Source: Bacteroides faecis
GTDB lineage: Bacteria > Bacillota > Clostridia > Oscillospirales > Acutalibacteraceae
Direction: 5' to 3'
Length of the DNA stretch: 63,171 bases
NCBI GenBank assembly: GCA_963625295.1
Contig: CAVFTC010000001.1
Coordinates: forward strand, 1 to 63,171
The position numbers and the translations under genes are program-made. Below the pieces are notes generated by a model. That model was not told where the DNA came from, ran no database searches, and saw only the letters and a program-made list of their open reading frames with translations. Numbering within the stretch: position 1 is the first letter of the stretch; each line of letters starts with the position of its first letter. This document shows, in pieces, positions 5,725-50,502 of the stretch.

Positions 5725-5735
5725 TAAACAAAGTC

Positions 5736-21197: not shown

Positions 21198-21299
21198 CTC
21201 TTCCTTTGTACCTCCGTAATTTTTTTGTAATCATCGATTACTTTGCCATTATATCATATCCGCCCAAAAAAAGCAACCGCATATTTTATCTTCAAAATA

Positions 21300-23406: not shown

Positions 23407-23430
23407 AATAACACAACAGGAGTGGTAATT

Positions 23431-24114: not shown

Positions 24115-24115
24115 T

Positions 24116-28007: not shown

Positions 28008-28265
28008 ATGAAAACTCGCGTCGCAGTCATGGCAATCATACTGGAATCAAAGGAAAACGCAGAGCAGCTCAACGCCGTGCTTCACGATTACCGTGAATAT
28101 ATCCTCGGCAGAATGGGTCTGCCCTACCCCAAGCATGAGATAAACATTATCAGCGTTGCGCTTGACGCTCCGCAGGATATAATCAACTCTCTTGCCGGAA
28201 AAATCGGAAGAATAGACGGAGTAAATGTTAAAACGGCATACTCGAACAACGAATACACCGTATAA
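28008..28265 (+). CDS. TM1266-family putative iron-only hydrogenase system regulator (ACT-like)
   Basis: 85 aa, colinear with Thermotoga TM1266-type proteins (...LH.Y...I.GR.G.PY......I..V.L.......I..L.GK.G.I.GV.VK). Confidence 0.75.
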   Translation: MKTRVAVMAIILESKENAEQLNAVLHDYREYILGRMGLPYPKHEINIISVALDAPQDIINSLAGKIGRIDGVNVKTAYSNNEYTV

Positions 28266-34766: not shown

Positions 34767-35849
34767 TCAGTCAAGCTTTACCTTGTATGTCCAGCCCATG
34801 TCGTCCTCAACATGACCTGTCTGCATACCGTAGAGCGTATCGTAAAGCTTCTGAGCGATCGGACCTACATTGCCGTCGGCAACCTTGTAATCCTCGCCCA
34901 TGTAATAAAGTGTGCCGATCGGAGAGATAACTGCGGCAGTACCGCTGGCAAATACCTCCTTGAGAGTGCCTGCCTTGGAGGCTGCGCATACATCGTCGAT
35001 TGAAAGGCGTCTCTCCGATACCTTTACTCCCCACTTCTTGAGAAGCTCGATGACGGACTTTCTTGTAATACCGGGAAGAATCGTACCCATAAGCGGAGCA
35101 GTGATGACCTCGTCGCCGATTACGAAGAAGGCGTTTGAAGTGCCGATCTCCTCAACATACTTATGCTCAACAGCGTCAAGCCAAAGAACATCCTTGCAGT
35201 CATGCTCCATAGCCTTTGCCGAAGCCTTCATGCCACCTGCATAGTTGCCGCCGCACTTTGCAAAGCCTGTACCGCCGACAGCCGCACGGATGAATTCATC
35301 CTCAACATAAATCCTTGTCGTGTGAAGTCCGCCGTCGTTTGCGGCATAGTAAGAACCGACGGGGCAAAGAATGATGATAAAGCGATAATGCTTTGCCGGA
35401 AGAACGCTGAACGAAACCTCGTCGCCGAAGATAAACGGTCTGATATAAAGAGCGGTTGCCGGCTCGGTGGGTATCCAATCCTTATCAACGGTAATAAGCT
35501 GGTTGATGGCGTCAAAGAAAATATCCTTTTCCATATGCGGAATACACATACGGTCATTGGTTCTGTTCATACGCTCAAAGTTCTCCTCGGGTCTGAAAAG
35601 CTGAACATCGCCCGACGGAGTTTTATATGCCTTCATGCCCTCGAACATCATCTGGGCATAGTGGAGCACGCATGAAGCGGGTTCAATGGCGATCGGCTCA
35701 TGCGGAACAATTCTTCCGTCATGCCAGCCCTGTCCCTCATCGTAGTCGATCATAAACATATGATCCGTGAAATATTTACCGAAGCCGAGCTTCTTCTGAT
35801 CCGGCTTCTCCTTCGGATGTGTTGTTCTTGTTACTGGAAATGTATACAT
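34767..35849 (-). CDS. ilvE: Branched-chain amino acid aminotransferase
   Basis: About 360 aa from the ATG at 35849 (AAAGGAG RBS). Type IV aminotransferase motifs: FGKYFTDHMF, EGMKAY, GGTG.AK.GGNYA. Confidence 0.9.
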   Translation of the reverse strand: MYTFPVTRTTHPKEKPDQKKLGFGKYFTDHMFMIDYDEGQGWHDGRIVPHEPIAIEPASCVLHYAQMMFEGMKAYKTPSGDVQLFRPEENFERMNRTNDRMCIPHMEKDIFFDAINQLITVDKDWIPTEPATALYIRPFIFGDEVSFSVLPAKHYRFIIILCPVGSYYAANDGGLHTTRIYVEDEFIRAAVGGTGFAKCGGNYAGGMKASAKAMEHDCKDVLWLDAVEHKYVEEIGTSNAFFVIGDEVITAPLMGTILPGITRKSVIELLKKWGVKVSERRLSIDDVCAASKAGTLKEVFASGTAAVISPIGTLYYMGEDYKVADGNVGPIAQKLYDTLYGMQTGHVEDDMGWTYKVKLD

Positions 35850-35881
35850 TTCTGTCGCTCCTTTCAAAGCATTCATTTTGT

Positions 35882-35917
35882 CAATGCCGCACATCTCAAT
35901 TGTGCGGATTTGCCTTA
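35882..35917. repeat. Solo MITE terminus (contains the internal CCGCACA/TGTGCGG hairpin)
   Basis: The reverse complement reads TAAGGCAAATCCGCACAATTGAGATGTGCGGCATTG. Its terminal TAA is the stop codon of the C-N hydrolase gene. Confidence 0.75.
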
Positions 35918-36721
35918 TAATTCATAGAGATCGGGTTTTCTGTCGTTGAAAACATTGATCGAGCTTCTTATATCCTTTATTATTCCGAAATCGCAGTCAG
36001 CTGTGATGACCTCCTGCGCCTCGCCTGCCGCAGCGAGCACCTCGCCCCACGGGTCGATTATCTGCGAATGACCGCCGAAAACTGCGTCCGGTGTTTTTCC
36101 GCAGGAGTTGCAGCAGACAACAAACATCTGATTTTCAATCGCTCTTGCTCTTGTGAGTGTAACGATGTGTTCCTTTCTCGCAAGAGGCCACTGCGACACC
36201 ATAAACAGCATGTCAATGCCCCTTAGGGCAAGGCTTCTGACAAGCTCGCAGAAGCGGATATCGTAGCAGATTACGACGCCGCACTTATGTCCGTCAAGCT
36301 CGAAGGTCACAAGCTTTTCGCCGAAGCTAAAATATTTGTGCTCGTCCATCGGGGTGAAAAGGTGCGTCTTGTCATATTCGGCAACGACATCGCCCTTACG
36401 GTTGAAAACAAACGCCGTGTTGTAAATCCCGCCGTTCTTTTCGTTGGCGATACTGCCGGCAACGATGTTTACATTAAGCTCCCTTGCCAACGCCGAAAAG
36501 GTCTTTTTCAGCCTCTCGCCGTCTTTGTCACAATAGCTCGAAAGATTTTCCTTGGGATAATATCCCGTCGTCCATGTTTCGGGAAGAACGATAACATCGG
36601 ATTTTTCTTTCGCTGCCGTCTCCCTTATCAGTCTGACAGCCTCGTTGTAGTTATATTCAACATCGCCGAGCTTCATATCAAGCTGAATGCAGGAAGCCTT
36701 CATTGTATTATTCATAATCAT
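35915..36721 (-). CDS. Carbon-nitrogen hydrolase (nitrilase/omega-amidase superfamily)
   Basis: Catalytic E-K-C contexts: VLPE, the Lys in YDKTHLF and the Cys in GVVICYDIRF. Alternative starts are 36739, 36715 or 36703. Confidence 0.8.
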   Translation of the reverse strand: MIMNNTMKASCIQLDMKLGDVEYNYNEAVRLIRETAAKEKSDVIVLPETWTTGYYPKENLSSYCDKDGERLKKTFSALARELNVNIVAGSIANEKNGGIYNTAFVFNRKGDVVAEYDKTHLFTPMDEHKYFSFGEKLVTFELDGHKCGVVICYDIRFCELVRSLALRGIDMLFMVSQWPLARKEHIVTLTRARAIENQMFVVCCNSCGKTPDAVFGGHSQIIDPWGEVLAAAGEAQEVITADCDFGIIKDIRSSINVFNDRKPDLYEL

Positions 36722-37247
36722 AACCTGCCTTGACAGCACCCTTGTTCACATCAAGGAGATCAAGGTGACGGGCGGAAACAACCTTCTTGAGTGCGTCATC
36801 GGTATAATCAATCGAAAACTGCGGCACTTCCTTGAGAATCTTGCCCGTGATTATCATATTCGCAAGGGTCGGCGTTCCGTTATCGTTCGCCATTTTTGTT
36901 GCAGGAATATAATATACATCAACATCTGTTCTGTCAATCTTTTTGTCGATCATTGTTGAATCAACAAAAATCTTTCCGCCGCTGACAACATCGTTTTCGT
37001 ATTTTTCAAGTGACGGAAGATTCATTGCAACAAGCACATCCGGCTTGTCAACGATTGGAGAGCCGATCGGCTCGTCGCTGATAATCACGGAGCAGTTGGC
37101 AGTGCCGCCTCTCATTTCCGGTCCGTAGGACGGAAGCCAGCTGACCTGCTTGCCCTCGATAAGTCCCTTATATGCAAGGAATTTGCCTGCAAACAGAATT
37201 CCCTGTCCGCCGAAGCCTGCGAATAACATTCTGCAAGTGCTGCTCAT
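36708..37247 (-). CDS. 2-oxoacid:ferredoxin oxidoreductase, gamma subunit
   Basis: 179 aa; the GFGGQGI motif typical of POR/KOR/VOR gamma subunits. Confidence 0.85.
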
Positions 37248-37999
37248 TTTTCTTCCTCCTTTGCATAGATATCCTTGTAAACGCCGAGAGGATAGTAAGG
37301 AATCATGTTCTCCTCTGCCCAGTCAAGAGCCTTCTGCGGAGTCATTCCCCAGTTTGTAGGGCAGGTTGAAATAACCTCAACGAGAGAAAAGCCCTTGCCC
37401 TCAAGCTGATTCTTGAATGCCTTTTTGATAGCCTTTTTAGCGTTCTTGACATTTTTTACATTGTTGACAGCAACTCTCTCAAGATATGCCGCACCGTCAA
37501 CATTTGAAAGAAGCTCGCAAACCTTAACGGGATAGCCGACGGTGTTGACATCTCTGCCGTAGGGTGAGGTCTGGGTGACCTGACCGGGAAGCGTTGTCGG
37601 AGCCATCTGACCGCCCGTCATACCGTAAATAGCATTGTTAACGAAAATAACGGTGATATTCTCCCGTCTTGCAGCGGCATGAACCGTCTCGGCAGTACCG
37701 ATAGCGGCAAGGTCGCCGTCGCCCTGATATGTGAATACAACCTTTGACGGGTCGCTTCTCTTAACGCCTGTTGCAACGGCAGGAGCACGGCCGTGAGCCG
37801 CCTGAACAAAATCACATGTGAAATAGTTATATGCCATAACAGAGCAGCCGACCGATGCGACGCCGATCGTATCACCCTCGATTCCAAGCTCATCAATTAC
37901 CTCTGCAACCAGACGGTGAATAATACCGTGAGTACAGCCGGGACAATAGTGAAGCGTTGCGTCCGTCAATGATTTCGGTTTTTCAAATACAACTGACAT
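37244..37999 (-). CDS. 2-oxoacid:ferredoxin oxidoreductase, beta (TPP-binding) subunit
   Basis: CPGCTHG, GDGD....G and [10 protein letters not shown] motifs. The start at 37999 overlaps the alpha stop (TAATG). Confidence 0.85.
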
Positions 38000-39057
38000 T
38001 ATTCTGCACCTCCGTTTGACATGATAGCCGAAAGAACATCCTCCGGCGTCGGGATCATTCCGCCGACACGGTTGCAAAGCTCAACCGGTCTTTTGCAATC
38101 GATCGCAAGCTTCACATCGTCGATCATCTGACCCATGTTCATTTCAACAGTTATAAATCTCTTGCACTTCTCGGCAGCAGCCTTGAGCGGCTTTGTCGGG
38201 AACGGCCAGAGCGTGATCGGTCTTATCATGCCGACCTTGACGCCTCTCTTGCGTGCCTCATTGACTGCGTTCTTTGCCACACGGGCGGTGATACCGAACG
38301 CAACAACGCAAACCTCGGCGTCCTCCATGAGATATTCCTCGTACATCGTTTCGTTTTCTTCGATCGTCTTATATTTCTGATATCTCTCGAAATTCTTTAT
38401 TTCAAGCTCCTCGGGCTTGAGGTAAAGCGAATTGACTATGTTATGCTCTCTCTCACACTTTGTGCCGGTGAGTGCCCACGGCTTTTCAACCGGAGTTACC
38501 TCGGCAACATCGAGGGAAACCGGCTCCATCATCTGACCCATTGTGCCGTCGGCAAGGATCATTGCAACCATTCTGTATTTATCCGCAAGCTCAAAGCCCT
38601 TGACGGTGAGGCTTGCCATTTCCTGAACGGAAGCCGGTGCAAGTACGATATTGTGGTAATCGCCGTGTCCGCCACCCTTTGTTGACTGCCAGTAATCCGA
38701 CTGTGAGGGCTGAATTCCGCCGAGTCCGGGGCCGCCACGCTGAACATTGACCACGAGTGCGGGAAGGTCGCAGCCGGCGAGATATGAAATACCCTCGCTT
38801 TTAAGCGAAACTCCGGGGCTGGAGGAGGAGGTCATGACTCTCTTGCCTGTTGACGAAACGCCGATAACCATGTTGATTGCAGCGATCTCGCTCTCCGCCT
38901 GCAGGAATGTTCCGCCGATCTTCGGCATACGCTTTGACATGTAAGCCGCAACCTCTGTCTGCGGAGTTATGGGATAACCGAAGTAATGTCGGCAGCCTGC
39001 TCTGATAGCAGCCTCGGCAATTGCTTCGTTGCCTTTCATAAGTACTTTATCTGACAT
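37999..39057 (-). CDS. vorB: 2-oxoacid:ferredoxin oxidoreductase, alpha subunit (VorB-like)
   Basis: [36 protein letters not shown]-terminus typical of VorB/KorA-type alpha subunits. The longer track ORF runs into the ferredoxin gene. Confidence 0.8.
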
Positions 39058-39062
39058 TTTCT

Positions 39063-39269
39063 TCACCTCTCTACCGTAATAACACAATCGGGGCACATTG
39101 TAGCGCAGAAGGCGCATCCGATACACTTTTCCTGTTCCGTCACAACTGCGGGATGATGTCCCTTGTTGTTCAAAGTCGTCTCTGACAAATGAACTATTCC
39201 CTTGGGACAAGCGTTCACGCAAAGTCCGCAGCCCTTGCAAAGGTCTGTTTTGAATGTTACTTTAGCCAT
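39063..39269 (-). CDS. 2x[4Fe-4S] ferredoxin (delta subunit)
   Basis: Two CxxCxxCxxxCP motifs in 68 aa. Confidence 0.9.
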   Translation of the reverse strand: MAKVTFKTDLCKGCGLCVNACPKGIVHLSETTLNNKGHHPAVVTEQEKCIGCAFCATMCPDCVITVER

Positions 39270-39281
39270 TTGACATTCCTC

Positions 39282-39938
39282 CTAATTTATTTTCGCCTGT
39301 AGGGTAAGCGGAAGCATATTGCTCACTCGCCCGTACAGCTCTTTATAAAGCGTCTTTTTTACGGTAGTCATCGCAACGGGAAGCCCCGTAAGCTTTGAAA
39401 CCTCATCGGCATATTTGAGCGAATCAAGAACATCCTGAGCGGTCGTCTCCTCGCCGAGATTTGAGTTGTTTATTATAGCCGTAAATTTCATTGAACCGGC
39501 TTTTTCGATTTCATTCATGACCTCAAGGGTGCTGTAAGCGTCCCTTGTCAGCGGTCTGTACATGTTTATTACAAGAAACATCTCATAGTCGTTTTCCCGT
39601 ACTATGCTTTCGGAATAGCGGCCGAGAGCGTATGCGCCTCTGTCGTCGCCGCCGATATCCATAACAGCGTATTCCGTGCGGTCGTCAATGACAGAATATA
39701 TATCCTGCGGCAGCGAGGGAAGATCAACATTTGAGCTTGCAAAGTCCGAGCAGATAAGTCTTATCCCGGCGGCTTTAAGCTCCTTTTCGCTGTCCTTGGT
39801 TCTGAAATACGGGTTGACGATATCCAAATCCGCAACAGCCACCTCAAGACCCTGCTGTCTGAGCTTAAAAGCGTAATTGACCGCTATATTCGTTTTTCCG
39901 CTGCCGTAATGACCGGCAAAAAGCGTTATGCGCTTCAT
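39282..39938 (-). CDS. MinD/ParA/CooC-like P-loop ATPase
   Basis: Deviant Walker A GHYGSGKTN; 218 aa; first gene of the oxidoreductase operon. Confidence 0.7.
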   Translation of the reverse strand: MKRITLFAGHYGSGKTNIAVNYAFKLRQQGLEVAVADLDIVNPYFRTKDSEKELKAAGIRLICSDFASSNVDLPSLPQDIYSVIDDRTEYAVMDIGGDDRGAYALGRYSESIVRENDYEMFLVINMYRPLTRDAYSTLEVMNEIEKAGSMKFTAIINNSNLGEETTAQDVLDSLKYADEVSKLTGLPVAMTTVKKTLYKELYGRVSNMLPLTLQAKIN

Positions 39939-39953
39939 TATTTCACCCCAATA

Positions 39954-39988
39954 TAGATTTTAGACTTTAGATTGTAGATATTAGATAT
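39954..39988. repeat. Five tandem heptads TAGATNN
   Basis: TAGATTT TAGACTT TAGATTG TAGATAT TAGATAT, 16 nt upstream of the P-loop gene start and overlapping its putative -10. Confidence 0.8.
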
Positions 39989-40000
39989 TCCGATAATCAA
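39971..40000 (-). promoter_or_regulatory. Candidate promoter of the P-loop/VOR operon
   Basis: On the minus strand: TTGATT, 18 nt, TACAAT. Confidence 0.4.
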
Positions 40001-40020
40001 ATCTTTAATATCTAATCGGT

Positions 40021-40330
40021 GTGCCAAACCTTAGGATAAATTGTTCAGCGTGCGTCGAGTTCAAGGCGACAGGCTGACGCAACTATGTGTATTGCTAAGT
40101 CTGTCAACGCAGAAATCGGCGTACCAAACCTTAGGATAAATTGTTCAAGGTGCGTCGAGTTCAAGGCAACAGGCTAACGCAATACTATGTGTATTGCTAA
40201 GTCTGTCAACGCAGAAATCGGCGTGCCAAACCTTAGGATAAATTGTTCAGGGTGCGTCGAGTTCAAGGCGACAGGCTGACGCAATACTATGTGTATTGCT
40301 AAGTCTGTCAACGCAGAAATCGGCGTGCCA
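40021..40330. repeat. Three head-to-tail ~101-bp direct repeats plus a 6-nt partial fourth unit
   Basis: Units at 40021-40120, 40121-40222 and 40223-40324. Unit 1 vs unit 3 differ by 1 substitution and a 2-nt indel; unit 2 vs unit 3 differ by 4 substitutions. Each unit holds a ~17-bp imperfect hairpin. Confidence 0.95.
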
Positions 40331-40338
40331 TGGACAAT

Positions 40339-42609
40339 TTACAGCTGATTACGGATGATTTTGCCGCTTATAGTCTTTGGAAGCTCGTCCTTGAACACAA
40401 CGATTCTCGGGTACTTGTAAGGAGCGGTGTGCTTCTTAACATAGTTCTGAATTTCTTTTTTAAGCTCCTCGGTCGGCTCTGTGCCCTTGGTAAGGACAAT
40501 GGAAGCCTTGACGACCTGTCCTCTTACCTCGTCGGGAGCAGCGGAAACGCCGCACTCAAGAACATAAGGAAGCTCCATGATAACATTTTCGATCTCGAAC
40601 GGTCCGATACGGTAGCCGGACGATTTGATAACATCGTCGATACGGCCGACATACCAGAAATATCCGTCCTCATCACGCCATGCGATATCGCCCGTGTGAT
40701 AAACGCCGTCGTGCCAAACCTCGTCTGTACGATCCTGATTTCTGTAGTAGCCGAGGAATATACCGCACGGTACTTTCTCGGAAGTGTTGACGCAGATTTC
40801 ACCGGTTTCACCGATATCCGCTTCCGTTCCGTCGGGACGAAGAATCTTGATGTCGTAAAGCGGCGTCGGCTTGCCCATTGAGCCGGGCTTCGGAGTCATT
40901 CCGGTGAGCGTTGCTATTCCAAGAGTCATCTCCGTTTGACCGAAGCCCTCCATAAGCTCAAGTCCGGTAGCATTATAGAACTGGCGGAATACCTCCGGGT
41001 TAAGTGCCTCACCGGCTGTTGTTGCGTGACGGATAGAGGAAAGATCGTACTTTGCGAGATCCTCCTTTATCATCATTCTGTACATCGTCGGAGGTGCGCA
41101 GAATGTTGTGATGTTATATTGCTTGAACATCGGAAGAATATCCGACGCATCGAAGCGGTCGAAGTTATATACAAATACTGCGCCCTCGCAGAGCCACTGT
41201 CCGTAGAGCTTGCCCCAAAGAGCCTTGCCCCAGCCGGTGTCGGAGATTGTAAGGTGAAGTCCGTCCTTGCTTACGCAGTGCCAATATTTAGCGGTGATAT
41301 AGTGTCCGAGCGGATATTTGTAGGAATGGGTTGCGATTTTCGGATAGCCCGTTGTGCCGGAGGTGAAGAACATAAGCATCGGATCGTTTCCGCACGGTGC
41401 GTCCTCTTCCCTTCTGTATCTTCTGGAGAACAGGCTGTATTCGCTGTCGAAGCTGTGCCAGCCCTCACGCTCGCCGCCGACAATGATTTTGTTGACGAGA
41501 GTATGCGTCTTTGCGTCGGCGATGTCAACCTGATGAGCGGTGTCGCCGTCGGCTGTGCAAAGAATTGTCGTTACTCCTGCCGCCTCAAATCTGTACTCAA
41601 AGTCATGGTCAACAAGAAGATTCGTTGCCGGAATTGCGATTGCGCCGATCTTATGAAGCGCAAGGATTGCAAACCAGAACTGATAATGACGCTTGAGAAC
41701 AAGCATTACCCTGTCGCCCTTCTTTATGCCGAGCGACTTGAAGTAGTTGGCCGCCTGTGCCGAGTGCTCCTTGACATCCTTAAATGTGAAGATGCGTTCC
41801 GTCTTATCGCGGTCAACATGAACGAGTGCACGCTTGTCAGGGGATTTTTTTGCAATTTTATCAACGATATCAAAAGCGAAGTTGAATTCATCCTCATGAT
41901 TAAAATCAATGGAAACAAGATTTCCGTTTTCGTCCTCTGTTGCGTCAATAAACTTCTCGCAAACATAGCTGCCCTTTGCCTTTACGCCCTTGACAGCTCT
42001 TTCGTGAACGATATTCGTTACCGTATCATCACTTGCCATGACCATCGCAAGGAAGAGACAATCCCTGCCGTCGATGGCAACCATTCCGTGAGGCGTTGAG
42101 GAGTTATAATAAATGCTGTCGCCCTCGTTAAGAATCTCCTCATGATTTCCGACTCTTACTCTCAGTGAACCGCTGATAACGATATCGAACTCCTGACCAC
42201 CGTGAGTTACGGTGCTTATCGGTTTATTTTCAAGCTCCGCGTCATACTCGTATCTAACCCAGTACGGCTCGGAAAGCTTTTTTCTGAAATTCGGTGCAAG
42301 GTTTTTGATTTCGATTCCGTTCTCGCTGGCGGTGATCTGACCCTTGCCCAGTCTTGTAACGGTATAGGATGAAAGCACGGCGCTGTGACCTTCAAGAAGA
42401 TCCGTAATGCCAATGTCAAAAGCAAGTGCACACTTGTGAATAAAAGTGAAAGGAAGGTCAACCGTTCCGCTCTCATAGAGCCTGTAGGTTTCAACAGAGA
42501 CTTCAGACTTCTCCGCCATTTCCTCAACGGTAAAGCCGCATATGTCTCTCATTTCCTGGATACGCTCAGCAACCTCATAAAGCTTGTTTGATTCGTTTTG
42601 ATTTGACAT
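40339..42609 (-). CDS. XRE-HTH + cupin domain fused to an AMP-forming medium-chain acyl-CoA synthetase
   Basis: N-terminal ~190 aa: HTH (ICGFTVEEMAEKSEVSVETYRLYESG) and cupin (GQEFDIVISGSL...YYNSSTPHGM). Remainder: ACSM/MacS-like ligase (MFFTSGTTGYPK, YGQTE, YHTGD, SGKIIR). Confidence 0.85.
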   Translation of the reverse strand: MSNQNESNKLYEVAERIQEMRDICGFTVEEMAEKSEVSVETYRLYESGTVDLPFTFIHKCALAFDIGITDLLEGHSAVLSSYTVTRLGKGQITASENGIEIKNLAPNFRKKLSEPYWVRYEYDAELENKPISTVTHGGQEFDIVISGSLRVRVGNHEEILNEGDSIYYNSSTPHGMVAIDGRDCLFLAMVMASDDTVTNIVHERAVKGVKAKGSYVCEKFIDATEDENGNLVSIDFNHEDEFNFAFDIVDKIAKKSPDKRALVHVDRDKTERIFTFKDVKEHSAQAANYFKSLGIKKGDRVMLVLKRHYQFWFAILALHKIGAIAIPATNLLVDHDFEYRFEAAGVTTILCTADGDTAHQVDIADAKTHTLVNKIIVGGEREGWHSFDSEYSLFSRRYRREEDAPCGNDPMLMFFTSGTTGYPKIATHSYKYPLGHYITAKYWHCVSKDGLHLTISDTGWGKALWGKLYGQWLCEGAVFVYNFDRFDASDILPMFKQYNITTFCAPPTMYRMMIKEDLAKYDLSSIRHATTAGEALNPEVFRQFYNATGLELMEGFGQTEMTLGIATLTGMTPKPGSMGKPTPLYDIKILRPDGTEADIGETGEICVNTSEKVPCGIFLGYYRNQDRTDEVWHDGVYHTGDIAWRDEDGYFWYVGRIDDVIKSSGYRIGPFEIENVIMELPYVLECGVSAAPDEVRGQVVKASIVLTKGTEPTEELKKEIQNYVKKHTAPYKYPRIVVFKDELPKTISGKIIRNQL

Positions 42610-42651
42610 GATTTTTACCTCCGTAACATACCGGGAACCGATTTCGGATAA

Positions 42652-42947
42652 AACAAAAAATCCGTCCCAAAGTCATTAGAACTTTGAGACGGATTTGAAT
42701 ATCCGCGGTACCACTCAAATTGCGATCTGCTATTGCTTCTCGCCTCTCTGCAGGATCTGACAATCCCTCAACACTGACGTAGTTGTCACGGGAGAAACTA
42801 CTGTAGTTTTCATCTCTCCGGCTCGGAAGTGATGGGCTTTACATTTACCTCGCTATCGGCTCGCACCAAACGCCGACTCTCTGAAAGGACATAAACGCAA
42901 CCGTCTTCGTCACAGCCTTTGTTTCAACAGGTTATTTGTACCTGTTG
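42652..42947 (-). promoter_or_regulatory. T-box riboswitch leader, putative Ile (AUC) specifier
   Basis: Minus strand shows a K-turn (TGACGAAG / CTTCCGAGCC), AGAGAG bulge, distal loop GGTGCGA, T-box AATTTGAGTGGTACCGCGG (42703-42721) and the terminator TCCGTCTCAAAG...CTTTGGGACGGA + TTTTTT. Confidence 0.85.
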
Positions 42948-42953: not shown

Positions 42954-42982
42954 ATTATAAGATACTTTTCACAATTTTTCAA
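42954..42982 (-). promoter_or_regulatory. Promoter of the T-box(Ile) leader
   Basis: On the minus strand: TTGAAA, 17 nt, TATAAT. Confidence 0.7.
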
Positions 42983-42991
42983 GGGATATTT

Positions 42992-43009
42992 TGTAATATA
43001 AGTATTACA
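42992..43009. promoter_or_regulatory. Palindromic operator candidate TGTAATA-N4-TATTACA
   Basis: Perfect 7-bp inverted repeat 9 nt upstream of the -35. An identical motif with identical spacing lies at 47278-47295. Confidence 0.6.
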
Positions 43010-43019
43010 TTGTGTAATG

Positions 43020-45518
43020 TTACGCAGTTACAACAGAATTTGCCTTTTGCAGTCCGTATTTCTTGATTGCGTCCTCACGCATCTTGTATTTAAGAATCTT
43101 ACCGGCAACATTCATCGGGAACTCGGACACAAAGTCAATGTACTTCGGCACTTTATGCTTCGCCATATGAGAAAGAACATAGTCCTTCATCTCCTGCTCG
43201 GTCATGGTTTCGCCCTCCTTGAGGATAATGCAAGCCATTATCTCCTCGCCGAGTCCCTCGTCGGGAACGCCGATTACCTGAACATCCTTGACCTTCGGGT
43301 GGGTGTAAATGAACTCCTCAATCTCCTTGGGATAGATATTCTCGCCGCCACGGATAATCATATCCTTAAGTCTGCCTGTGATTCTGTAGTTGCCCTCCGG
43401 AGTGCGGCACGCAAGGTCGCCGGTATGAAGCCAGCCGTCCTTGTCGATTGCGCTTGCCGTAGCCTTCGGCATTTTATAGTAACCCTTCATGATGTTGTAT
43501 CCACGGGCAACGAACTCACCGGTCACATTGTCCGGGCATTCAAGACCCGTATCGGGGTCAACGATTTTACATTCGATTTTCGGAAGCGGATGACCGACAG
43601 TAGCCACACGATCCTCCAGCGGGTCGTCAGTGCTGCTCATCGTACAGCCCGGAGATGATTCCGTCTGACCGTAAACGATTGTGATTTCGGTCATATGCAT
43701 TTTTTCGACAACCTCACGCATCTTTGAGATCGGACACGGCGAGCCTGCCATGATACCCGTTCTCATGTATGAAAAATCGGTCTTTTCAAAGTCGGGGTGC
43801 TGTAGCATTGCGATAAACATCGTCGGAACGCCGTGGAAAGCCGTTATACGCTCGGAATTTATACACGCAAGCGATGATTTCGGCGAGAAATACGGTAATG
43901 GGAGAGCCGTTCCGCCGTGGGTCATGATGGCAGTCATGGCAAGAACCATGCCGAAGCAATGGAACATCGGAACATGGATCATCATTCTGTCCGCCGTTGA
44001 AAGATCCATTCTGTCGCCGATACACTTACCGTTGTTTACGACATTGTAGTGGGTAAGCATAACGCCCTTCGGGAAGCCTGTTGTACCGGAGGTGTACTGC
44101 ATATTGCATACATCGTCCCTCCTGACAAGAGAAGCCATTCTGTAGACCTCCTCGACAGGAACCTCGCTCGACTTGTCAACCGCCTGCTCCCATGTCATAC
44201 AGCCCTGCTGCTCATAGCCGACCGTAATAATATTTCTCAAAAACGGCAATCTCTTTGCGTGGAGCTTTTCGCCGCTCTTGGTGCTTTCCAGCTCAGGGCA
44301 AAGCTCAGCCATGATCTCGTCATAGTGTGAGTCTCTGTAGCCCTTTATCATAATCAGCGTATGAGTATCCGACTGTCTGAGCAGATATTCCGCCTCGTGA
44401 ATTTTATATGCCGTGTTCATTGTAACAAGAACAGCGCCGATTTTGGTGGTCGCCCAAAACGAAATATACCACTGCGGAACATTGGTTGCCCAAACGGCAA
44501 CATGAGAGCCGGCTTTTACGCCCATTGCAATAAGCGCTCTCGCAAAGGTATCAACATCGTCACGGAACTGCGCATATGTTCTCGTATAGTCAAGCGTTGT
44601 ATATTTGAATGCAAGCTGATCGGGAAACTCCTCAACCATTCTGTCAAGAACCTGCGGGAATGTCTCCTCGATAAGCTCCTCTTTTTTCCAGATGAATTTG
44701 CCTGTATGGGTCTTGTTGTAGTAGTATTTCTTCTTGCTTGTCTCGTCCGCAACAGTCTCCATAAAGCTCTCATAATGAGTCAAAATGATTTCAAGATCGT
44801 CTATCGACTCGAACCACTCGGGATTCCATTCAACGCAAACAAAGCCGTTGTAATTTATCGAGCCGAGAGCATTCATCATGTCCTTGATAGGCATTGCGCC
44901 CTCGCCGATGAGAGTGTGCTCGCCTGCCTTCACGGCGTCGGTCAGATGGACAAGCTTGACATATGCGCCAAGGTTGGTAATGGTCTTTTCCGAATCCTCG
45001 CCGCCGACGAAGTATGTTTCATACATATTCCAATCTGCGCCGATAAAGTCGCTTGCAAAATAGTTCATCAAATCGCAGAGCCTTGTCGTGTCGGCAAAAA
45101 TGCCCGTCGTTTCGACAAGGACGATAACATTGTGCTTTTCGCCCTCTGCGATAGCCTTGCCGATGAACTCAAGCGCCTTTTCGTAAGCGTCTTCGCCACC
45201 CTCAACATAGAGCTTGACATAGGGAATGTTTATGTTGCTTGCAACGGTGATAGCCGAGTTCATTTTTTCAATATTTTCGTCGGAATTATCTGCGGCGTTG
45301 CAGTTTGAATTTATGCAAACTATGCTCTTTTTCGAGTTGATGAGCTTTCTTTTGGTTGCCGAAGCCATGTCAGGATTAAACGGTGAGGTTCTGCCTGAAA
45401 ACATTGCGTCACGAAAATCGTGGATCTCAACTCCGCCGTATTTCAGCTCATCCGCCATATTGAGAAAGTCATCAAAGCTTTTATTCTTATGAAATCTTGT
45501 AGAAAAAGCTAATTTCAC
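43020..45518 (-). CDS. Xylose-isomerase-like TIM-barrel domain fused to an AMP-dependent acyl-CoA ligase
   Basis: N-terminal ~270 aa resemble AP-endonuclease-2 / sugar-phosphate-isomerase TIM barrels. The C-terminal ~560 aa are a FadD-type ligase (MQYTSGTTGFPKGVMLTH, YGQTE, LHTGD, AGKILK). GTG start with a GGAGGG RBS, 2 nt after the upstream stop. Confidence 0.8.
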   Translation of the reverse strand: MKLAFSTRFHKNKSFDDFLNMADELKYGGVEIHDFRDAMFSGRTSPFNPDMASATKRKLINSKKSIVCINSNCNAADNSDENIEKMNSAITVASNINIPYVKLYVEGGEDAYEKALEFIGKAIAEGEKHNVIVLVETTGIFADTTRLCDLMNYFASDFIGADWNMYETYFVGGEDSEKTITNLGAYVKLVHLTDAVKAGEHTLIGEGAMPIKDMMNALGSINYNGFVCVEWNPEWFESIDDLEIILTHYESFMETVADETSKKKYYYNKTHTGKFIWKKEELIEETFPQVLDRMVEEFPDQLAFKYTTLDYTRTYAQFRDDVDTFARALIAMGVKAGSHVAVWATNVPQWYISFWATTKIGAVLVTMNTAYKIHEAEYLLRQSDTHTLIMIKGYRDSHYDEIMAELCPELESTKSGEKLHAKRLPFLRNIITVGYEQQGCMTWEQAVDKSSEVPVEEVYRMASLVRRDDVCNMQYTSGTTGFPKGVMLTHYNVVNNGKCIGDRMDLSTADRMMIHVPMFHCFGMVLAMTAIMTHGGTALPLPYFSPKSSLACINSERITAFHGVPTMFIAMLQHPDFEKTDFSYMRTGIMAGSPCPISKMREVVEKMHMTEITIVYGQTESSPGCTMSSTDDPLEDRVATVGHPLPKIECKIVDPDTGLECPDNVTGEFVARGYNIMKGYYKMPKATASAIDKDGWLHTGDLACRTPEGNYRITGRLKDMIIRGGENIYPKEIEEFIYTHPKVKDVQVIGVPDEGLGEEIMACIILKEGETMTEQEMKDYVLSHMAKHKVPKYIDFVSEFPMNVAGKILKYKMREDAIKKYGLQKANSVVTA

Positions 45519-45520
45519 AA

Positions 45521-46936
45521 TTAACCCTCCTCGTATGCTATCTTGTTCAGTGCGCTGACATATGCACGGATGCTTGCGCCGATAATATCTGTCGAAATGC
45601 CTGTTCCGGAATAGAGCTTTCCGGTCGAGCTTCTGAGCTTAACGAGCGCATGACCCATGGCCTCACGACCCTCGGTAACGGCTTGAATCTGGAAATCGTC
45701 CAGCTCGTAGTGATGTCCGATAATCTGCTCGATTGCAAGAAACGCCGCATCAATCGGACCGTCTCCGACGCTCACACCGCTGACCACCGTGCCATCCTTG
45801 ACAAGCTTGATGTTAGCGGTTGCGGTAATAATGTTACCGCTGTTGATAACATAGCTTTCAATCGAATAGCTTGAGGGAACCTGCAATGCGGAGGAGGCTA
45901 TAATTACTTCAAGCTCCTTTGTGCCGACAAAGTCCTTCTTAACGGCAACACGCTTGAACGCCTCATAAACATTTGAATTATCCTCGGGAGAAAGGTCGTA
46001 GCCGATTTTTTTAACCGCCTTTATAACGGTTGCTATCGTGTCGTTTTTATCAAGAGTGAGGCTCTCGCCGTCCTCGTTTACACCTGTTTCAAACGGCGTA
46101 TTCTCACTCTTGGAGGTGTTGAGCATTCTTTTTATTTGACCCGTAACACGCTGAAGCTCTGTCGTCCTTATCTTGCTTGAGGCCTTTATAGAATCACCTC
46201 TGAGGGTGAATATCTTCATGATTTTTTCAACCGTCGGGAAGTTGAAATTGTCTGCCGTAACCTTGATCTGCGACGCTCCGGCTTCGATTGCGGCGAATGC
46301 GGAGGCGGAGGCCATGTTCATTGAGTCAACGACCTCAACGCCGACCGTAGCATTCTTGGCGGACGGAACATTCTCAAAAATATCCGAGATAAAGCCGCCG
46401 AATTCGGACGGGAACATCGTACCCTCGGAGTCGCAAACAGTGACCCTCGTTGCGCCTGCCTTTATCGCTTCTTCTATCGCCTGATACAGGAACGGTCTTT
46501 CGGCTCTCACTGCGTCCTCAGCCGAGAATTCAATGCTGTCGGTGTACTTTTTGCACTCGGTGATAAGCTCTGTTACCATGCTCATCACCACCGGCGGCTT
46601 TTTGCCGCACTTGAACTCCATCTGAACCGCAGACATCGGGAGAGAAACCTTAAGAGAAAACTTCTTTGCACCCTTTGCGCAGTTATAAGCCGTTTCAACG
46701 CCCGCCGCATCATAACCAACATCAACGGCGATTTCCGAATGCTTCATAAGCGAAGCGATCGTTTTTATAAGAAGAACATCGGTTGATGTGTTCTTTATTT
46801 TCGGCATCTCGATGATATCGCAGTGCAGCTTGTCCATCTGCTTTGCGATCTCGATCTTCTCCTTAAAGCTTAAGGAATGGCTGGCTGACGACTCGCTTTC
46901 TCTGAGCGTCACATCGGATAAAATTACTTTTCTCAT
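45521..46936 (-). CDS. 2-isopropylmalate-synthase homolog (HMGL-like TIM barrel + LeuA regulatory domain) with degenerate catalytic motifs
   Basis: 471 aa from the ATG at 46936 (AAAGGAG RBS). Colinear with LeuA, but DTTLRDGEQ is SDVTLRESES, HTHxD is VEVVD and GIGERAGN is ADNFNFPT. The C-terminal LeuA-dimer-like domain is intact. Confidence 0.8.
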   Translation of the reverse strand: MRKVILSDVTLRESESSASHSLSFKEKIEIAKQMDKLHCDIIEMPKIKNTSTDVLLIKTIASLMKHSEIAVDVGYDAAGVETAYNCAKGAKKFSLKVSLPMSAVQMEFKCGKKPPVVMSMVTELITECKKYTDSIEFSAEDAVRAERPFLYQAIEEAIKAGATRVTVCDSEGTMFPSEFGGFISDIFENVPSAKNATVGVEVVDSMNMASASAFAAIEAGASQIKVTADNFNFPTVEKIMKIFTLRGDSIKASSKIRTTELQRVTGQIKRMLNTSKSENTPFETGVNEDGESLTLDKNDTIATVIKAVKKIGYDLSPEDNSNVYEAFKRVAVKKDFVGTKELEVIIASSALQVPSSYSIESYVINSGNIITATANIKLVKDGTVVSGVSVGDGPIDAAFLAIEQIIGHHYELDDFQIQAVTEGREAMGHALVKLRSSTGKLYSGTGISTDIIGASIRAYVSALNKIAYEEG

Positions 46937-46959
46937 AACGATTCTCCTTTTGAAGTTAT

Positions 46960-47233
46960 AAAAAAACAAAGTCCCGGAAGTATTCAAACTTCCGGGACGA
47001 TAAAACATGTTTACCGCGGTACCACCCGCATTGCCTAAACGGCCTCTTCGGATTCTGACAAATCCTAAGCTGTGATAACGGTGCTTGCCGTAGCTCCTTA
47101 TACAGTAAAGACGGTTGGGGAGCTCTGCTCGGATACGAGACAGCAATTAAATTTCCATATCGGCTCACACCTACCGCCGACTCTCTGAAATCAGAAATAA
47201 AACGCTTAATATCTTCAACGCATTTCAAATATT
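46960..47233 (-). promoter_or_regulatory. T-box riboswitch leader, putative Leu (CUC) specifier
   Basis: Minus strand shows a K-turn (GCGTTGAAGATA / TATCCGAGCA), AGAGAG bulge, distal loop GGTGTGA, T-box GCGGGTGGTACCGCGG (47014-47029) and the terminator GTCCCGGAAG...CTTCCGGGAC + TTTGTTTTTTT. Confidence 0.85.
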
Positions 47234-47239: not shown

Positions 47240-47268
47240 ATTATAGTAAACTTTTTTTAATTTGTAAA
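47240..47268 (-). promoter_or_regulatory. Promoter of the T-box(Leu) leader
   Basis: On the minus strand: TTTACA, 17 nt, TATAAT. Confidence 0.7.
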
Positions 47269-47277
47269 CAGACAAAA

Positions 47278-47295
47278 TGTAATATTTGTATTACA
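47278..47295. promoter_or_regulatory. Palindromic operator candidate TGTAATA-N4-TATTACA (second copy)
   Basis: Perfect 7-bp inverted repeat 9 nt upstream of the -35, with the same geometry as 42992-43009. Confidence 0.6.
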
Positions 47296-47303
47296 AAATG
47301 TAA

Positions 47304-48125
47304 TTACTTCAAAAGCTCCGCATTGAGCGTTTTTCCGTAAGCTGTTGCGGCATTGACAAGACCCTCATCGGGAATCGTCTGCATAATGGGCTTGCCGGTG
47401 CTGAGAATTCTGCAATAGATCTCCGCTGATTTCTCGATTGTATGCATAAGACCGAAGGCTGCGTCAAATGTGTTGCCCGATACAAAAAGTCCGTGGTGCG
47501 CCCATACGATGGCGTCGTATTTCTTTTGAAGCTCGCAGGTCTTGTGAGCTATCTCCGCTCCGCCGGGAATCATCCATTCAACAACGCCGACGCCGTTCGG
47601 GAAAATGATCGGGCACTCCGTCATGCTCTCCCAGAGAACTCTTGAGAAAGCCTCGGAGGTAAGCGGAAGAACAAATGTGAGAGCGATAATGTTAACGGGA
47701 TGGGCATGGTAGATAACTCTGCAAGCGCCGTCCGTTGCCGCAACACGAACGCTGTGGTTCATGAAATGGGTCGGGAACTCGCTTGTCGGGCCGCCGCCGT
47801 TAACAAGACCCCATACGATTCTGTAGCCGTCGCCTGCGTCGTTGATTTCAAGAATGCACATATTTGCCGCCGGATCTCTGATAACATTCTGGAAGAACTT
47901 ACCCGTACCCGTTACCATGAAATACTCATTTTTAAGGTTGTCCGCCTGAACGCCGAGATCAACCCACGGCCTGTCATATGTAAAGTAAGGCTTGCAAGCC
48001 TCTACCTCTTCGGCTGTCATACGGTAGGAAAGGTTTCCGCCGTTGCCCTCATGCCAGCCCTGCTCATAGCCGTCGTTGCAGGTAAGAGCAAACTTTTTGA
48101 TTACATCAAGATCCAAAATACTCAT
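47304..48125 (-). CDS. rhaD: Rhamnulose-1-phosphate aldolase (class II aldolase)
   Basis: 273 aa, colinear with E. coli RhaD: GW.E.NGGNL, VTG.GKFF.NV..DPAAN, PTSE.P.HF, HAHP.N.IALT, HGLF..G. Confidence 0.85.
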   Translation of the reverse strand: MSILDLDVIKKFALTCNDGYEQGWHEGNGGNLSYRMTAEEVEACKPYFTYDRPWVDLGVQADNLKNEYFMVTGTGKFFQNVIRDPAANMCILEINDAGDGYRIVWGLVNGGGPTSEFPTHFMNHSVRVAATDGACRVIYHAHPVNIIALTFVLPLTSEAFSRVLWESMTECPIIFPNGVGVVEWMIPGGAEIAHKTCELQKKYDAIVWAHHGLFVSGNTFDAAFGLMHTIEKSAEIYCRILSTGKPIMQTIPDEGLVNAATAYGKTLNAELLK

Positions 48126-49962: not shown

Positions 49963-50502
49963 TCATGCCAAAAGTGCGGCAACGATATTTGAATAAACTC
50001 CGGCAGGGTCATCAAGAAATTTTTCCTTAACGGCAAGAGCCTGCTCATAGTCGGCAACAAAGAGCTTCACGCTCATTATTTCGTCCTCGGCATCAAGCAC
50101 GGAAATTGACACATTGCAGCCCTTTTCGACCCTGTCGATCTGAATTTTATTTTCACGCTCGCGTCTGAGCCTCGTTTGAAGTCGGACGGCAGCGTTAAAA
50201 GCCTTTTCCCTCACCGTATAGGGAATATCATGCTCCAGCGTTTCGGAGTTTTTTCTGCCCTTATCGGTGATAAATATATTGTTATCTCTGATGAAAACAT
50301 TGCCGTTATCGGCAAGCTCACCGAGCGCCTGACTCATCTCGAAATAATTTGCAAGCTCCTCGCCGCAAATCACCTCGTTAAGCTGCTCCTTCGTCAGCGG
50401 CGCATCAAGGCGGCAGAGAAGATAACCGATAAGAATTTTTATCTCGTTCTTCGTCCTCAGTCCACCAAGCTCAATGCCTTCGCTAAAGGAATCGTATTCC
50501 AT
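49963..50502 (-). CDS. DUF4364 family protein
   Basis: 179 aa; the N-terminal LRTKNEIKILIGYLL region is typical of clostridial DUF4364 proteins (assignment from memory). Confidence 0.6.
   Translation of the reverse strand: MEYDSFSEGIELGGLRTKNEIKILIGYLLCRLDAPLTKEQLNEVICGEELANYFEMSQALGELADNGNVFIRDNNIFITDKGRKNSETLEHDIPYTVREKAFNAAVRLQTRLRRERENKIQIDRVEKGCNVSISVLDAEDEIMSVKLFVADYEQALAVKEKFLDDPAGVYSNIVAALLA

Follow-up and report, generated by a model that had tools for sequence, protein, structure and literature searches.

The concept discussed here is not new: the B. subtilis ilv-leu operon is a textbook case of a T-box combined with binding sites for transcription factors. That operon combines CcpA, CodY and TnrA sites upstream of its promoter with a Leu T-box; the upstream protein sites act at initiation and the T-box at elongation (PMC6123439), and CodY usually represses branched-chain amino acid genes (PMC6123439). 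The stretch of DNA that we analysed (the window, 63 kb) holds two T-box operons for which we propose the same logic, an upstream activator site joined to amino-acid-specific attenuation; however, the motif differs from those of ilv-leu, a single element is common to two T-box operons with different specifiers, and the operons are built on acyl-CoA synthetase and 2-oxoacid:ferredoxin oxidoreductase. It is plausible that the element is a fairly ordinary extra layer of control above the T-boxes; if real, it would place under one signal two operons that otherwise respond independently, one to the charging of tRNA-Ile and the other to that of tRNA-Leu, in uncultured Clostridia of gut and rumen. The operons, their leaders and their core promoters are:

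34767 to 39938, minus strand: remainder of the Ile T-box operon (CbiA/ParA-like gene, 2-oxoacid:ferredoxin oxidoreductase alpha, beta and gamma subunits, CN hydrolase, class IV (branched-chain) aminotransferase)
40339 to 42609, minus strand: 756-aa fusion of HTH_3, Cupin_2 and AMP-binding domains, whose gene opens the Ile T-box operon
42682 to 42922, minus strand: T-box leader 1, specifier AUC (Ile), Rfam RF00230, with its terminator at 42658-42696
42925 to 42947, minus strand: 5'-proximal leader hairpin CAACAGGT-N7-ACCTGTTG, between the -10 hexamer and T-box 1
42954 to 42982, minus strand: copy 1 core promoter, TTGAAA, 17 nt, TATAAT, matching the consensus at 11 of 12 positions
43020 to 46936, minus strand: Leu T-box operon, a LeuA-like gene followed by a fusion gene (next two lines)
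43020 to 45518, minus strand: xylose-isomerase-like TIM-barrel and AMP-binding fusion
45521 to 46936, minus strand: LeuA-like gene (HMGL-like and LeuA_dimer domains)
46990 to 47227, minus strand: T-box leader 2, specifier CUC (Leu), Rfam RF00230, with its terminator at 46971-46998
47240 to 47268, minus strand: copy 2 core promoter, TTTACA, 17 nt, TATAAT, matching the consensus at 11 of 12 positions

The operons seem to serve the synthesis of branched-chain amino acids by a route that is unusual and non-canonical, in which acyl-CoA synthetase, 2-oxoacid:ferredoxin oxidoreductase and branched-chain aminotransferase would apparently act together to reductively carboxylate branched-chain acids; a small ferredoxin gene in the Ile T-box operon was seen in relatives. 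The two leaders scored 103.2 and 94.9 bits against the RF00230 covariance model (gathering threshold 93), their specifiers being read from the aligned specifier positions, and a promoter scan ranked both predicted promoters as the top two sigma-70-like matches in 5 kb. The 34-nt leader segment with the 5'-proximal hairpin folds at -10.7 kcal/mol and shows compensatory changes among relatives, the hairpin being missing in L084 and L086. Genes upstream of both copies of the element run in the same direction as the operons.

Read on the minus strand, copy 1 consists of the palindrome TGTAATActtaTATTACA (43009 to 42992), 9 nt, TTGAAA (42982-42977), 17 nt and TATAAT (42959-42954), while copy 2 consists of TGTAATAcaaaTATTACA (47295 to 47278), 9 nt, TTTACA (47268-47263), 17 nt and TATAAT (47245-47240). 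Both TGTAATA-N4-TATTACA palindromes (42992-43009 and 47278-47295, with the Ile and the Leu T-box downstream, respectively) are perfect, and the original prediction, that palindrome, gap, spacer and TATAAT recur with the same geometry at both promoters, agrees exactly with the sequence. Its motif was nevertheless incomplete, as it overlooked a third hexamer, ATTACA, 3 nt upstream of each palindrome (43013-43018 in copy 1, 47299-47304 in copy 2), and included the A/T at half-site position 7, which is unconserved among relatives. The parts of the element are:

43013 to 43018, minus strand: copy 1 H1, ATTACA, outer half of the distal dyad, starting 1 nt past the stop codon of the TIM-barrel/AMP-binding gene
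43004 to 43009, minus strand: copy 1 H2, TGTAAT, completing the distal dyad ATTACA-N3-TGTAAT as its inner half-site, with the dyad centre near -64 from the predicted transcription start
42992 to 42997, minus strand: copy 1 H3, ATTACA, outer half-site of the dyad nearer the promoter, at a constant 9 nt from the -35 hexamer
42983 to 42991, minus strand: copy 1 9-nt gap, aaaTATCCC, an N3 spacer and a degenerate fourth half-site, H4
47299 to 47304, minus strand: copy 2 H1, ATTACA, sharing the last base of the aldolase stop codon
47290 to 47295, minus strand: copy 2 H2, TGTAAT
47278 to 47283, minus strand: copy 2 H3, ATTACA
47269 to 47277, minus strand: copy 2 9-nt gap, tttTGTCTG, an N3 spacer and a weak half-site H4

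The unit looks like two 15-bp dyads ATTACA-N3-TGTAAT, a strong one near -64 and a degenerate one near -43 that abuts the -35 hexamer (positions that assume a transcription start 7 nt after TATAAT), and the 18-bp palindrome is probably the junction of these neighbouring dyads, i.e., their inner halves. We prefer this parse to the single palindrome proposed earlier because the spacing inside the palindrome, between H2 and H3, is 5, 6 or 7 bp depending on the species. No part of the sites, which span about -71 to -36, reaches the -35 hexamer downstream of them. H4 is a weak half-site, with TGT in about half of the sites and ATTACA-N3-T[GA]Tnnn abutting -35; it reads TGTATC in L087, L088 and L211 and TGTCTG in copy 2, and the mean information content of the 9-nt gap was 0.93 bit, compared with 0.47-0.68 bit in the remaining spacers.

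The two copies are identical at 18/18 hexamer bases, as against 4/9 spacer bases and 3/9 gap bases; they are not a recent DNA duplication. The same contrast was found among relatives. We compared 12 sites found via protein homology (from the window, L002, L081, L084 and L086-L089), which are therefore free of pattern-based ascertainment: variable columns numbered 6/18 in the hexamers and 18/18 in the spacers (p = 3e-5), and departures from the column majority 13/216 and 84/214, respectively, although the compared sequences are related and such cell-level statistics overstate independence. Hexamers held constant across orthologous promoters while spacers vary are what is generally expected of a transcription-factor operator. 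H2 was unchanged in 12/12 of these sites (it is degenerate, AGTTAT, in L211), and H1 occurred among relatives as ATTACA, ATTACG and ATAACT. Two spacings did not vary, the N3 inside the distal dyad and the 9-nt stretch separating H3 from -35. The H2-H3 linker measured 6 bp for the most part among relatives, but 5 bp in L086 and 7 bp in L210. Reduced forms also occur: L211 keeps mainly the proximal dyad (ATTACAaaaTGTATC, beside TTGAAA) and L084 mainly the distal one. The element stays with the T-box promoter even where the upstream gene has changed, e.g., to glutamate dehydrogenase (L084) or an acetyltransferase (L086). TATAAT is present at all sites recovered by a pattern requiring TATAAT; L210 has TATACT.

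Within the DNA searched, the element is specific to these two promoters. A search of the window allowing ≤2 mismatches returned only the two copies (0.12 expected from shuffles), and in 217 kb of related DNA matches at ≤1 mismatch were confined to the two promoters save for one chance-level stray in the window and one extra match a few bases upstream of the L086 site. The stray, at 21226-21242 (TGTAATcatcgATTACt), falls between divergent genes, ahead of an operon with an OmpR-type response regulator; we treated it as chance, as its spacing is N5, it deviates at one position, H1 is missing and the promoter is at another distance, and about 1-1.5 such matches are expected in 217 kb. The DUF4474 gene in L084 had no site like it. 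A metagenome search for ATTACA-N3-TGTAAT-N5/6-ATTACA gave matches of which most, among those listed, were A/T-rich, repeat or marine/soil sequences without relation to the operons; of the matches listed, the same T-box promoters accounted for L114, L119, L161 and L188 alone, and none was a new regulon member. These four loci were left out of the conservation test because they had been selected by the pattern itself. A recurrent sequence, ATTACAAAATGTAATGTAAACATTACA, in high-GC peat/soil contigs was considered as a lead to a regulator family; L105, however, is archaeal (FtsZ, SecE, Spt5), and these contigs are therefore unrelated.

Taxonomically the element is limited to a single lineage: it is missing from about 66 orthologous T-box promoters of greater evolutionary distance. 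In 63/66 of these the -35 hexamer is TTGACA or TTGACT, whereas promoters with the element have TTGAAA, TTGCAA, TTGCAT or TTTACA. The leuA promoter of L087 and L088 also has TTTACA as its -35, yet no hexamers. As the distant promoters combine a consensus -35 with, often, CodY-like boxes at the same position, the element offers a clean example of lineage-specific rewiring.

The explanation that we favour, and hold to be rather probable, is that a helix-turn-helix regulator, sequence-specific and probably dimeric, uses the element as its composite operator and has its gene elsewhere in the genome, and that the acyl-CoA synthetase fusion is probably not that regulator. At each promoter such a regulator would use the strong distal dyad near -64 and the proximal ATTACA-N3-TrTnnn near -43, whose last base abuts -35, and would set the initiation rate of both operons in response to one common signal, for which the supply of branched-chain amino acids, branched-chain acids or acyl-CoA, or nitrogen or redox state, are candidates; each T-box would then separately decide transcript completion by tRNA-Ile or tRNA-Leu charging. 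A dedicated DNA-binding regulator layered on the riboswitches had been suggested from the outset, and this part of the suggestion is supported by the hexamer/spacer contrast, the fixed distance to -35, the persistence of the element beside changed upstream genes and its confinement to these two promoters in 217 kb of related DNA; the reader that had been proposed for it is not (see below). Within the operator explanation we consider activation somewhat more likely than repression, because all parts of the sites are located ahead of the core promoter, where their positions resemble those of class I/class II or LysR RBS/ABS sites, and because the -35 hexamer departs from consensus at just those promoters that carry the element; the TTTACA without hexamers at the L087/L088 leuA promoter makes the activator argument weaker. 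Promoters matching 11/12 consensus positions should work without an activator, an observation that sits awkwardly with the operator explanation.

The position of the sites recalls LysR-type regulators, whose binding regions comprise a recognition site near -65 and an activation site beside -35, e.g., the BenM/CatM ATAC-N7-GTAT. Here too a 15-bp dyad with T-N11-A, aTTACAnnnTGTAAt, is centred -64 from the predicted start; what may be a second, degenerate dyad near -43 abuts -35, the centres being 20-22 bp apart. However, no LysR-type gene is nearby or divergently transcribed among the window ORFs, the linker is 5 to 7 bp, and the half-sites are unlike characterised LysR boxes. A rigid tetramer, as LysR-type regulators are, would not usually tolerate dyads at variable distance, and in this respect too the operator explanation meets an awkward observation. 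The window as a whole has no LysR- or Lrp-type gene, nor any HTH_1 or LysR_substrate protein among its ORFs; other regulators in it are NrdR, a TetR-family protein, an OmpR-type response regulator and a DUF4364 protein. The last of these (49963-50502, 2.7 kb upstream of copy 2) was considered as the regulator and set aside, as it had no PDB sequence match and no further Pfam hit, and is an operon neighbour in the window and L081 only.

Activation from upstream sites is also possible for the TyrR and TnrA/GlnR families, which control genes of amino-acid or nitrogen metabolism, the TyrR box of enterobacteria being TGTAAA-N6-TTTACA and the TnrA/GlnR box TGTNA-N7-TNACA (17 bp). TGTAAT-N6-ATTACA has the 18-bp geometry of a TyrR box, with one position per half differing, while read as TGTAA-N8-TTACA (18 bp) the window sites are 1 bp longer than a TnrA/GlnR box, and the 17-bp form (N5) was found only in L086. 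A rigid dimer is unlikely to occupy H2-H3 as one site, given that the spacing of these hexamers differs between species (5 to 7 bp), and we identified no TyrR, TnrA or GlnR homologue. The window sites likewise exceed a TnrA box by 1 bp, do not have the CG found at the centre of a cre site, and show by eye 4-6 or more mismatches to the CodY box (in the conspecific L002 the best match upstream of -35 has 6 mismatches to AATTTTCWGAAAATT); none of the CodY, Rex, TnrA/GlnR, CRP/FNR/NtcA, ArgR, Fur/Zur, PadR, OhrR and WalR consensus sequences fitted both sequence and spacing. The operators of BlaI/MecI/CopY winged-helix repressors (TACA-N2-TGTA) are closer in their half-site core, TTACA / TGTAA, and are often two dyads; the family's core is KACA-N2-TGTM and the refined cop box RNYKACANNTGTMRNY, with ATTACAnnTGTAA examples in the L. 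lactis CopR table (PMC7253601). However, that family has ACA-N2-TGT, while we found ACA-N3-TGT (in both window copies, 16/16 recovered sites and L210), its sites overlap the promoters that they repress, and the operons here have no functional link to copper or beta-lactam sensing. A literature search on the motif in several notations found no regulator with such a site; the 45-bp element itself (43018-42974 in copy 1) offers a concrete bait for finding one.

A rather unlikely alternative is that the dyads are repressor sites, at which the same factor would block contacts of the RNA polymerase alpha C-terminal domain or sigma region 4 upstream of -35 and so stand in for the CodY-like control of other species. 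The near-consensus promoters (11/12) would then need no activator, the proximal dyad abuts -35, and orthologues without the element carry an A/T-rich, CodY-box-like sequence at the same position: 26/67 of them had ≤4 mismatches to AATTTTCWGAAAATT, compared with about 5% of shuffles, and several had 0-2 (L043 0, L047 1). Repression is harder to reconcile with sites that do not overlap -35, -10 or the start site, with a strongest dyad that is the distal one near -64, and with -35 hexamers weakened exactly where the element is present.

We consider improbable the autoregulation implied by the original prediction, in which the N-terminal XRE-HTH and cupin module of the acyl-CoA synthetase would bind the hexamers and tune both operons, its ligand being sensed by the cupin or adenylating domain as in the bifunctional ligase/repressor BirA. 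The fusion was said to be encoded between the two copies; it lies at 40339-42609, downstream of copy 1, and the genes between are the LeuA-like and TIM-barrel/AMP-binding ones. It has the required domains (HTH_3 at 24.5 bits with a cut-off of 23, Cupin_2 at 39.4 bits), is the sole protein in both regulated operons with a recognised DNA-binding-type domain, and has copy 1 as its own promoter. XRE-cupin proteins are, moreover, typically palindrome-binding local regulators of adjacent metabolic genes (PMC7901475), and the HTH_3 and cupin pair of that family (PauR, PsdR, ErfA; PMC7901475) is found here in the first gene of the regulated operon; the module here, however, is fused to a 550-aa adenylating enzyme, is strongly acidic and is present in many species without the element.

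Co-occurrence, domain charge and the recognition helix all fail to support the fusion as reader. Fusion and T-box are kept in about 80 Oscillospirales species, of which about 66 are without the element; the fusion was present in all 80 retrieved loci and the element in the window's near relatives only. For instance, L001, whose protein is 80% identical and has a similar recognition helix, is without the element at both promoters. Conversely, helix 3 differs between the window (VSVETYRLYESG) and L211 (TTPELYNEYESG), although the hexamer ATTACA beside -35 is common to both (the other L211 hexamers are degenerate). The HTH-like domain of the fusion has a net charge of -9 (mean of the closest homologues -8.5, range across 120 retrieved homologues -11 to -2), whereas the classical XRE DNA-binding domains of SinR, 434 and P22 have +1 to +9. 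Judged from its sequence, the domain would thus seem to have neither an XRE-typical DNA-binding surface nor a recognition helix that tracks the operator, and the HTH-cupin module is also found in a pure enzyme, HppE, among its nearest PDB sequence matches. Known XRE-cupin factors are thought to occlude the promoter (PMC7901475), but the sites here lie upstream of -35 and do not overlap the core promoter as occlusion would need. All this suggests that the acyl-CoA synthetase fusion is probably not the regulator. Very doubtful, too, is the more specific idea that the acidic HTH-cupin N-terminus is a lineage-specific, BirA-like trigger-enzyme module reading the dyads at its own and the leuA promoters; if true, occupancy of the adenylating enzyme (by branched-chain acid, acyl-AMP or CoA) would directly influence the transcription of two riboswitch-gated operons.

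It is most improbable that the element works at the RNA level, with H1:H2 or H2:H3 hairpins in read-through transcripts serving as terminator or processing signal: both copies do begin at, or 1 nt past, the upstream stop codon, the two pairings exclude each other, and the H1 variant ATTACG still pairs via G-U, but the predicted hairpin has little stability (-3.7 kcal/mol, z = -1.9, a single G-C pair), copy 1 is not followed by a T-run, and a terminator scan gave no call there. Further, the hexamer sequence itself is conserved with no compensatory double changes while loops and spacers vary (H2-H3 loop length 5 to 7), the variants ATAACT (L088, L089) and ATACAT (L084) break the pairing, and the distance is fixed to -35, not to the upstream stop codon. 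Energy and the absent covariation led us to reject the terminator/hairpin reading. An inverton, in which inverted repeats would flank an invertible promoter, was likewise rejected, there being no matching repeat downstream of the promoter.

Equally remote is the view that the element has no dedicated function, being either a generic UP-like element rich in A/T or the outcome of gene conversion or promoter copying from one locus to the other. UP elements do sit at this location, and the region is A/T-rich; moreover, the promoter pairs of the window and L002 share 10-11/17 bases of the -35/-10 spacer, which suggests some sequence exchange. However, the hexamers are arranged as dyads with G and C conserved across lineages while the spacers are saturated with changes, and the L081 and L086 promoter pairs share only 5-6/17 spacer bases but 16/18 hexamer bases.

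The two palindromes of the original prediction, TGTAATA-N4-TATTACA at 42992-43009 and 47278-47295, proved to be perfect and were the only matches in the 63-kb window at up to two mismatches (0.12 being expected from shuffles). A third hexamer, ATTACA, lies 3 nt upstream of each palindrome and had been overlooked.

Features of the two T-box operons and their promoters
Upstream of copy 2, minus strand: FGGY kinase and class II aldolase genes
47306 down to 47240, minus strand: copy 2, ...TA-ATTACA, ttt, TGTAAT, acaaat, ATTACA, ttttgtctg, TTTACA, 17 nt, TATAAT
46990-47227, minus strand: Leu T-box leader downstream of copy 2 (Rfam; specifier CUC; terminator called)
45521-46936, minus strand: short LeuA-like gene (471 aa), first after the Leu T-box
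43020-45518, minus strand: xylose-isomerase-like TIM-barrel and AMP-binding fusion (832 aa), following the LeuA-like gene and preceding copy 1
43022 down to 42954, minus strand: copy 1, TAA stop, c, ATTACA, caa, TGTAAT, acttat, ATTACA, aaatatccc, TTGAAA, 17 nt, TATAAT
42682-42922, minus strand: Ile T-box leader downstream of copy 1 (Rfam; specifier AUC; terminator called)
40339-42609, minus strand: HTH_3, Cupin_2 and AMP-binding fusion, first gene after copy 1 and the Ile T-box
After the HTH-cupin fusion, minus strand: CbiA/ParA-like gene, small ferredoxin gene (called in relatives), then three subunits of a 2-oxoacid:ferredoxin oxidoreductase
End of the Ile operon, minus strand: CN hydrolase and class IV (branched-chain) aminotransferase genes

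The Leu T-box operon, consisting of the LeuA-like gene and the TIM-barrel/AMP-binding fusion, spans 43020-47227 (minus strand), and the Ile T-box operon 34767-42922 (minus strand); the same Ile operon recurs in four of the homologous loci compared with the window (L081, L087, L088 and L210). In a consensus scan of the 5-kb region the two promoters came out first, both with 11 of 12 positions matched. Between the copies the hexamer bases are identical (18/18), whereas spacers agree at 4/9 and gaps at 3/9 bases, and the T-box leaders have little in common outside the conserved core of the family; the copies are not a recent DNA duplication.

Full-length homologues of the HTH-cupin fusion number in the hundreds in Oscillospirales MAGs (Acutalibacteraceae, Oscillospiraceae and Ruminococcaceae among them), and a core-motif search identified a T-box-like sequence upstream of the fusion in 72 of the 80 loci retrieved with this protein. 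We compared 66 promoters of other species than that of the window: none has the hexamers, and in 63 the -35 is TTGACA or TTGACT. Both promoters carry the element in L002 (99% identical protein), L081 (90%) and L086 (85%), and the Ile promoter carries it in L089 (86%), L084 (84%), L087 (82%), L088 (81%) and L210 (80%); it is partial in L211 (77%) and absent from both loci of L001 (80%), where the promoters are consensus. Judged by these loci, the element is restricted to closer relatives. Across 12 sites found through protein homology the hexamers were near-invariant and the spacers effectively randomised (6/18 versus 18/18 variable columns, p = 3e-5). As L084 and L086 have a different gene upstream of the Ile promoter and retain the element, it is part of the promoter and not of the upstream gene's 3' end. 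A scan of 217 kb from relatives that carry the element placed matches with at most one mismatch at these two promoters, with two exceptions: an extra match in L086, a few bases upstream of the site there, and a stray in the window at chance level. This stray, TGTAATcatcgATTACt (21226-21242), is the sole other near-match in the window; it falls in the intergenic space that separates a DUF4474 gene from a divergently transcribed operon encoding an OmpR-type response regulator and histidine kinase (23422-25687).

Numbering the hexamers H1 to H3, we found the H1-H2 spacer (3 nt) and the distance from H3 to the -35 (9 nt) to be constant across the species compared; the H2-H3 linker varies, being 6 bp in most relatives but 5 bp at both promoters of L086 and 7 bp in L210. 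The 9-nt gap exceeds the other spacers in information content and comprises N3 and a weak fourth half-site (TGTATC in L087, L088 and L211; TGTCTG at leuA promoters). L211 retains mainly the proximal pair, ATTACAaaaTGTATC, adjoining TTGAAA, and L084 mainly the distal pair. On the simplest reading the element would be two 15-bp dyads, ATTACA-N3-TGTAAT, with centres at about -64 and -43 (the start being assumed 7 nt after TATAAT), with the reported 18-bp palindrome formed by their inner halves. The original parse, which had a palindrome correctly in place, is slightly wrong; the seventh base of its half-sites is not conserved in relatives.

Three known operator types come near this element in sequence, and one defining feature fails in each. 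TyrR boxes have geometry in common with the H2-H3 pair and TnrA/GlnR boxes are 1 bp shorter than the window's site, the comparison being with their consensus sequences. BlaI/MecI/CopY operators share the TTACA/TGTAA core, with N2 in place of N3 as the spacing (PMC7253601). By position a LysR-type layout fits best, but the linker length varies and no LysR gene is nearby; the regulators encoded in the window are NrdR, a TetR-family protein, an OmpR-type response regulator and a DUF4364 protein, none being of LysR or Lrp type, and in the literature we found no regulator with this site. We regard the element as a real, conserved, lineage-restricted, promoter-upstream predicted operator common to two T-box operons. 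The same layered logic is seen in the ilv-leu operon of B. subtilis, in which a Leu T-box is combined with sites for CcpA, CodY and TnrA (PMC6123439). The element adds one more case to a known kind of layered control. More unusual biologically is what the operons encode: acyl-CoA synthetase fusions gated by T-boxes, accompanied by a 2-oxoacid:ferredoxin oxidoreductase and a branched-chain aminotransferase. A reductive-carboxylation route to branched-chain amino acids is known from rumen bacteria; from the enzymology we infer that the Ile operon encodes such a route, in which a branched-chain acid would be converted via its acyl-CoA and then the 2-oxo acid into the amino acid, and the operon's content suggests that isoleucine is made by reductive carboxylation of 2-methylbutyrate.

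Recognition by a protein that would read the element as DNA upstream of both T-box promoters is the best explanation of these patterns. We favour activation of both promoters, since the sites lie wholly upstream of the core promoter, at what would be class I/II or LysR-type RBS/ABS positions, which are typical of activators, and the -35 is non-consensus where the element occurs. Repression, in which the bound factor would block upstream polymerase contacts, is a serious alternative, given the 11/12 consensus matches of the promoters and the promoter of leuA in L087 and L088, which has the same TTTACA -35 and no hexamers. In their place these two loci have another perfect palindrome, TAGACAAAA-N6-TTTTGTCTA, abutting the -35 (about 1140-1180 in L087 and 5300-5340 in L088); window copy 2 keeps its right arm (ttttgtctg) alone.

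As the reader of the element, the original prediction proposed the HTH-cupin-synthetase, placing its gene between the copies; it is in fact encoded downstream of copy 1. Of the layered regulator that was envisaged, the shared, conserved operator holds up and the named protein is unsupported. The fusion is present in 80/80 loci retrieved with it, most of them without the element, and its HTH-like domain has a net charge of -9 (the closest homologues average -8.5 and the others -6.5). Helix 3 of the window's protein is unlike that of L211 at most variable positions, yet both loci have ATTACA beside the -35, and the L001 helix resembles that of L210 although L001 is without the element. Enzymes also have HTH-cupin modules (the nearest PDB sequence matches include HppE), and promoter occlusion is the presumed mode of action of the XRE-cupin factors that have been characterised. 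Co-occurrence, domain charge and helix 3 all count against this protein, and we consider its binding to the hexamers quite improbable. The XRE-type domain (residues 10-75) is unusually acidic, with net charges from -11 to -2 across 120 homologues.

An RNA hairpin or terminator role for the hexamers is unlikely, as the stem reaches only -3.7 kcal/mol (z = -1.9) with no terminator called there, the hexamers are conserved as sequence and not through compensatory change, and pairing is lost in the variants ATAACT and ATACAT. A separate 5' leader hairpin, CAACAGGT-N7-ACCTGTTG (42925-42947, minus strand; -10.7 kcal/mol for the 34-nt leader segment containing it), lies between the -10 and the Ile T-box and may act as a stem-loop that stabilises the transcript 5' end; relatives show compensatory changes (CAACAGA/TCTGTTG, CAACAA/TTGTTG and CAATGAGA/TCTCATTG), but L084 and L086 lack the hairpin and none was seen in L001.

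Many of the 66 hexamer-less promoters have a CodY-box-like sequence at the position of the element (sought in the first 170 nt upstream of the T-box), which suggests that control by CodY plus T-box is the more widespread state. Sequences like the CodY box AATTTTCWGAAAATT are frequent just upstream of consensus TTGACA, as in L043 (no mismatches), L047 (one), L010, L066 and other orthologous promoters.

Among other observations, a small secreted-protein gene in peat/soil contigs (L092, L105, L125, L153, L158 and L195; GC 0.55-0.58) is repeatedly preceded, at about 50 nt, by ATTACAAAATGTAATGTAAACATTACA; of these contigs L105 looks archaeal (FtsZ, SecE, Spt5). The sequence is unrelated to the window but seems to be a conserved element of its own. 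In L084 the synthetase operon has, a few kb further upstream, a gene for a reverse-transcriptase-Cas1 fusion followed by cas2 (3590-5745). The window contains a TM1266-like gene ('iron-only hydrogenase system regulator', 28008-28265), and in L211 (1614-5619) a TM1266-family gene, two radical-SAM genes and one gene with a HydF domain follow one another immediately ahead of the Ile T-box operon, the last three probably encoding the hydrogenase maturases HydE, HydG and HydF.
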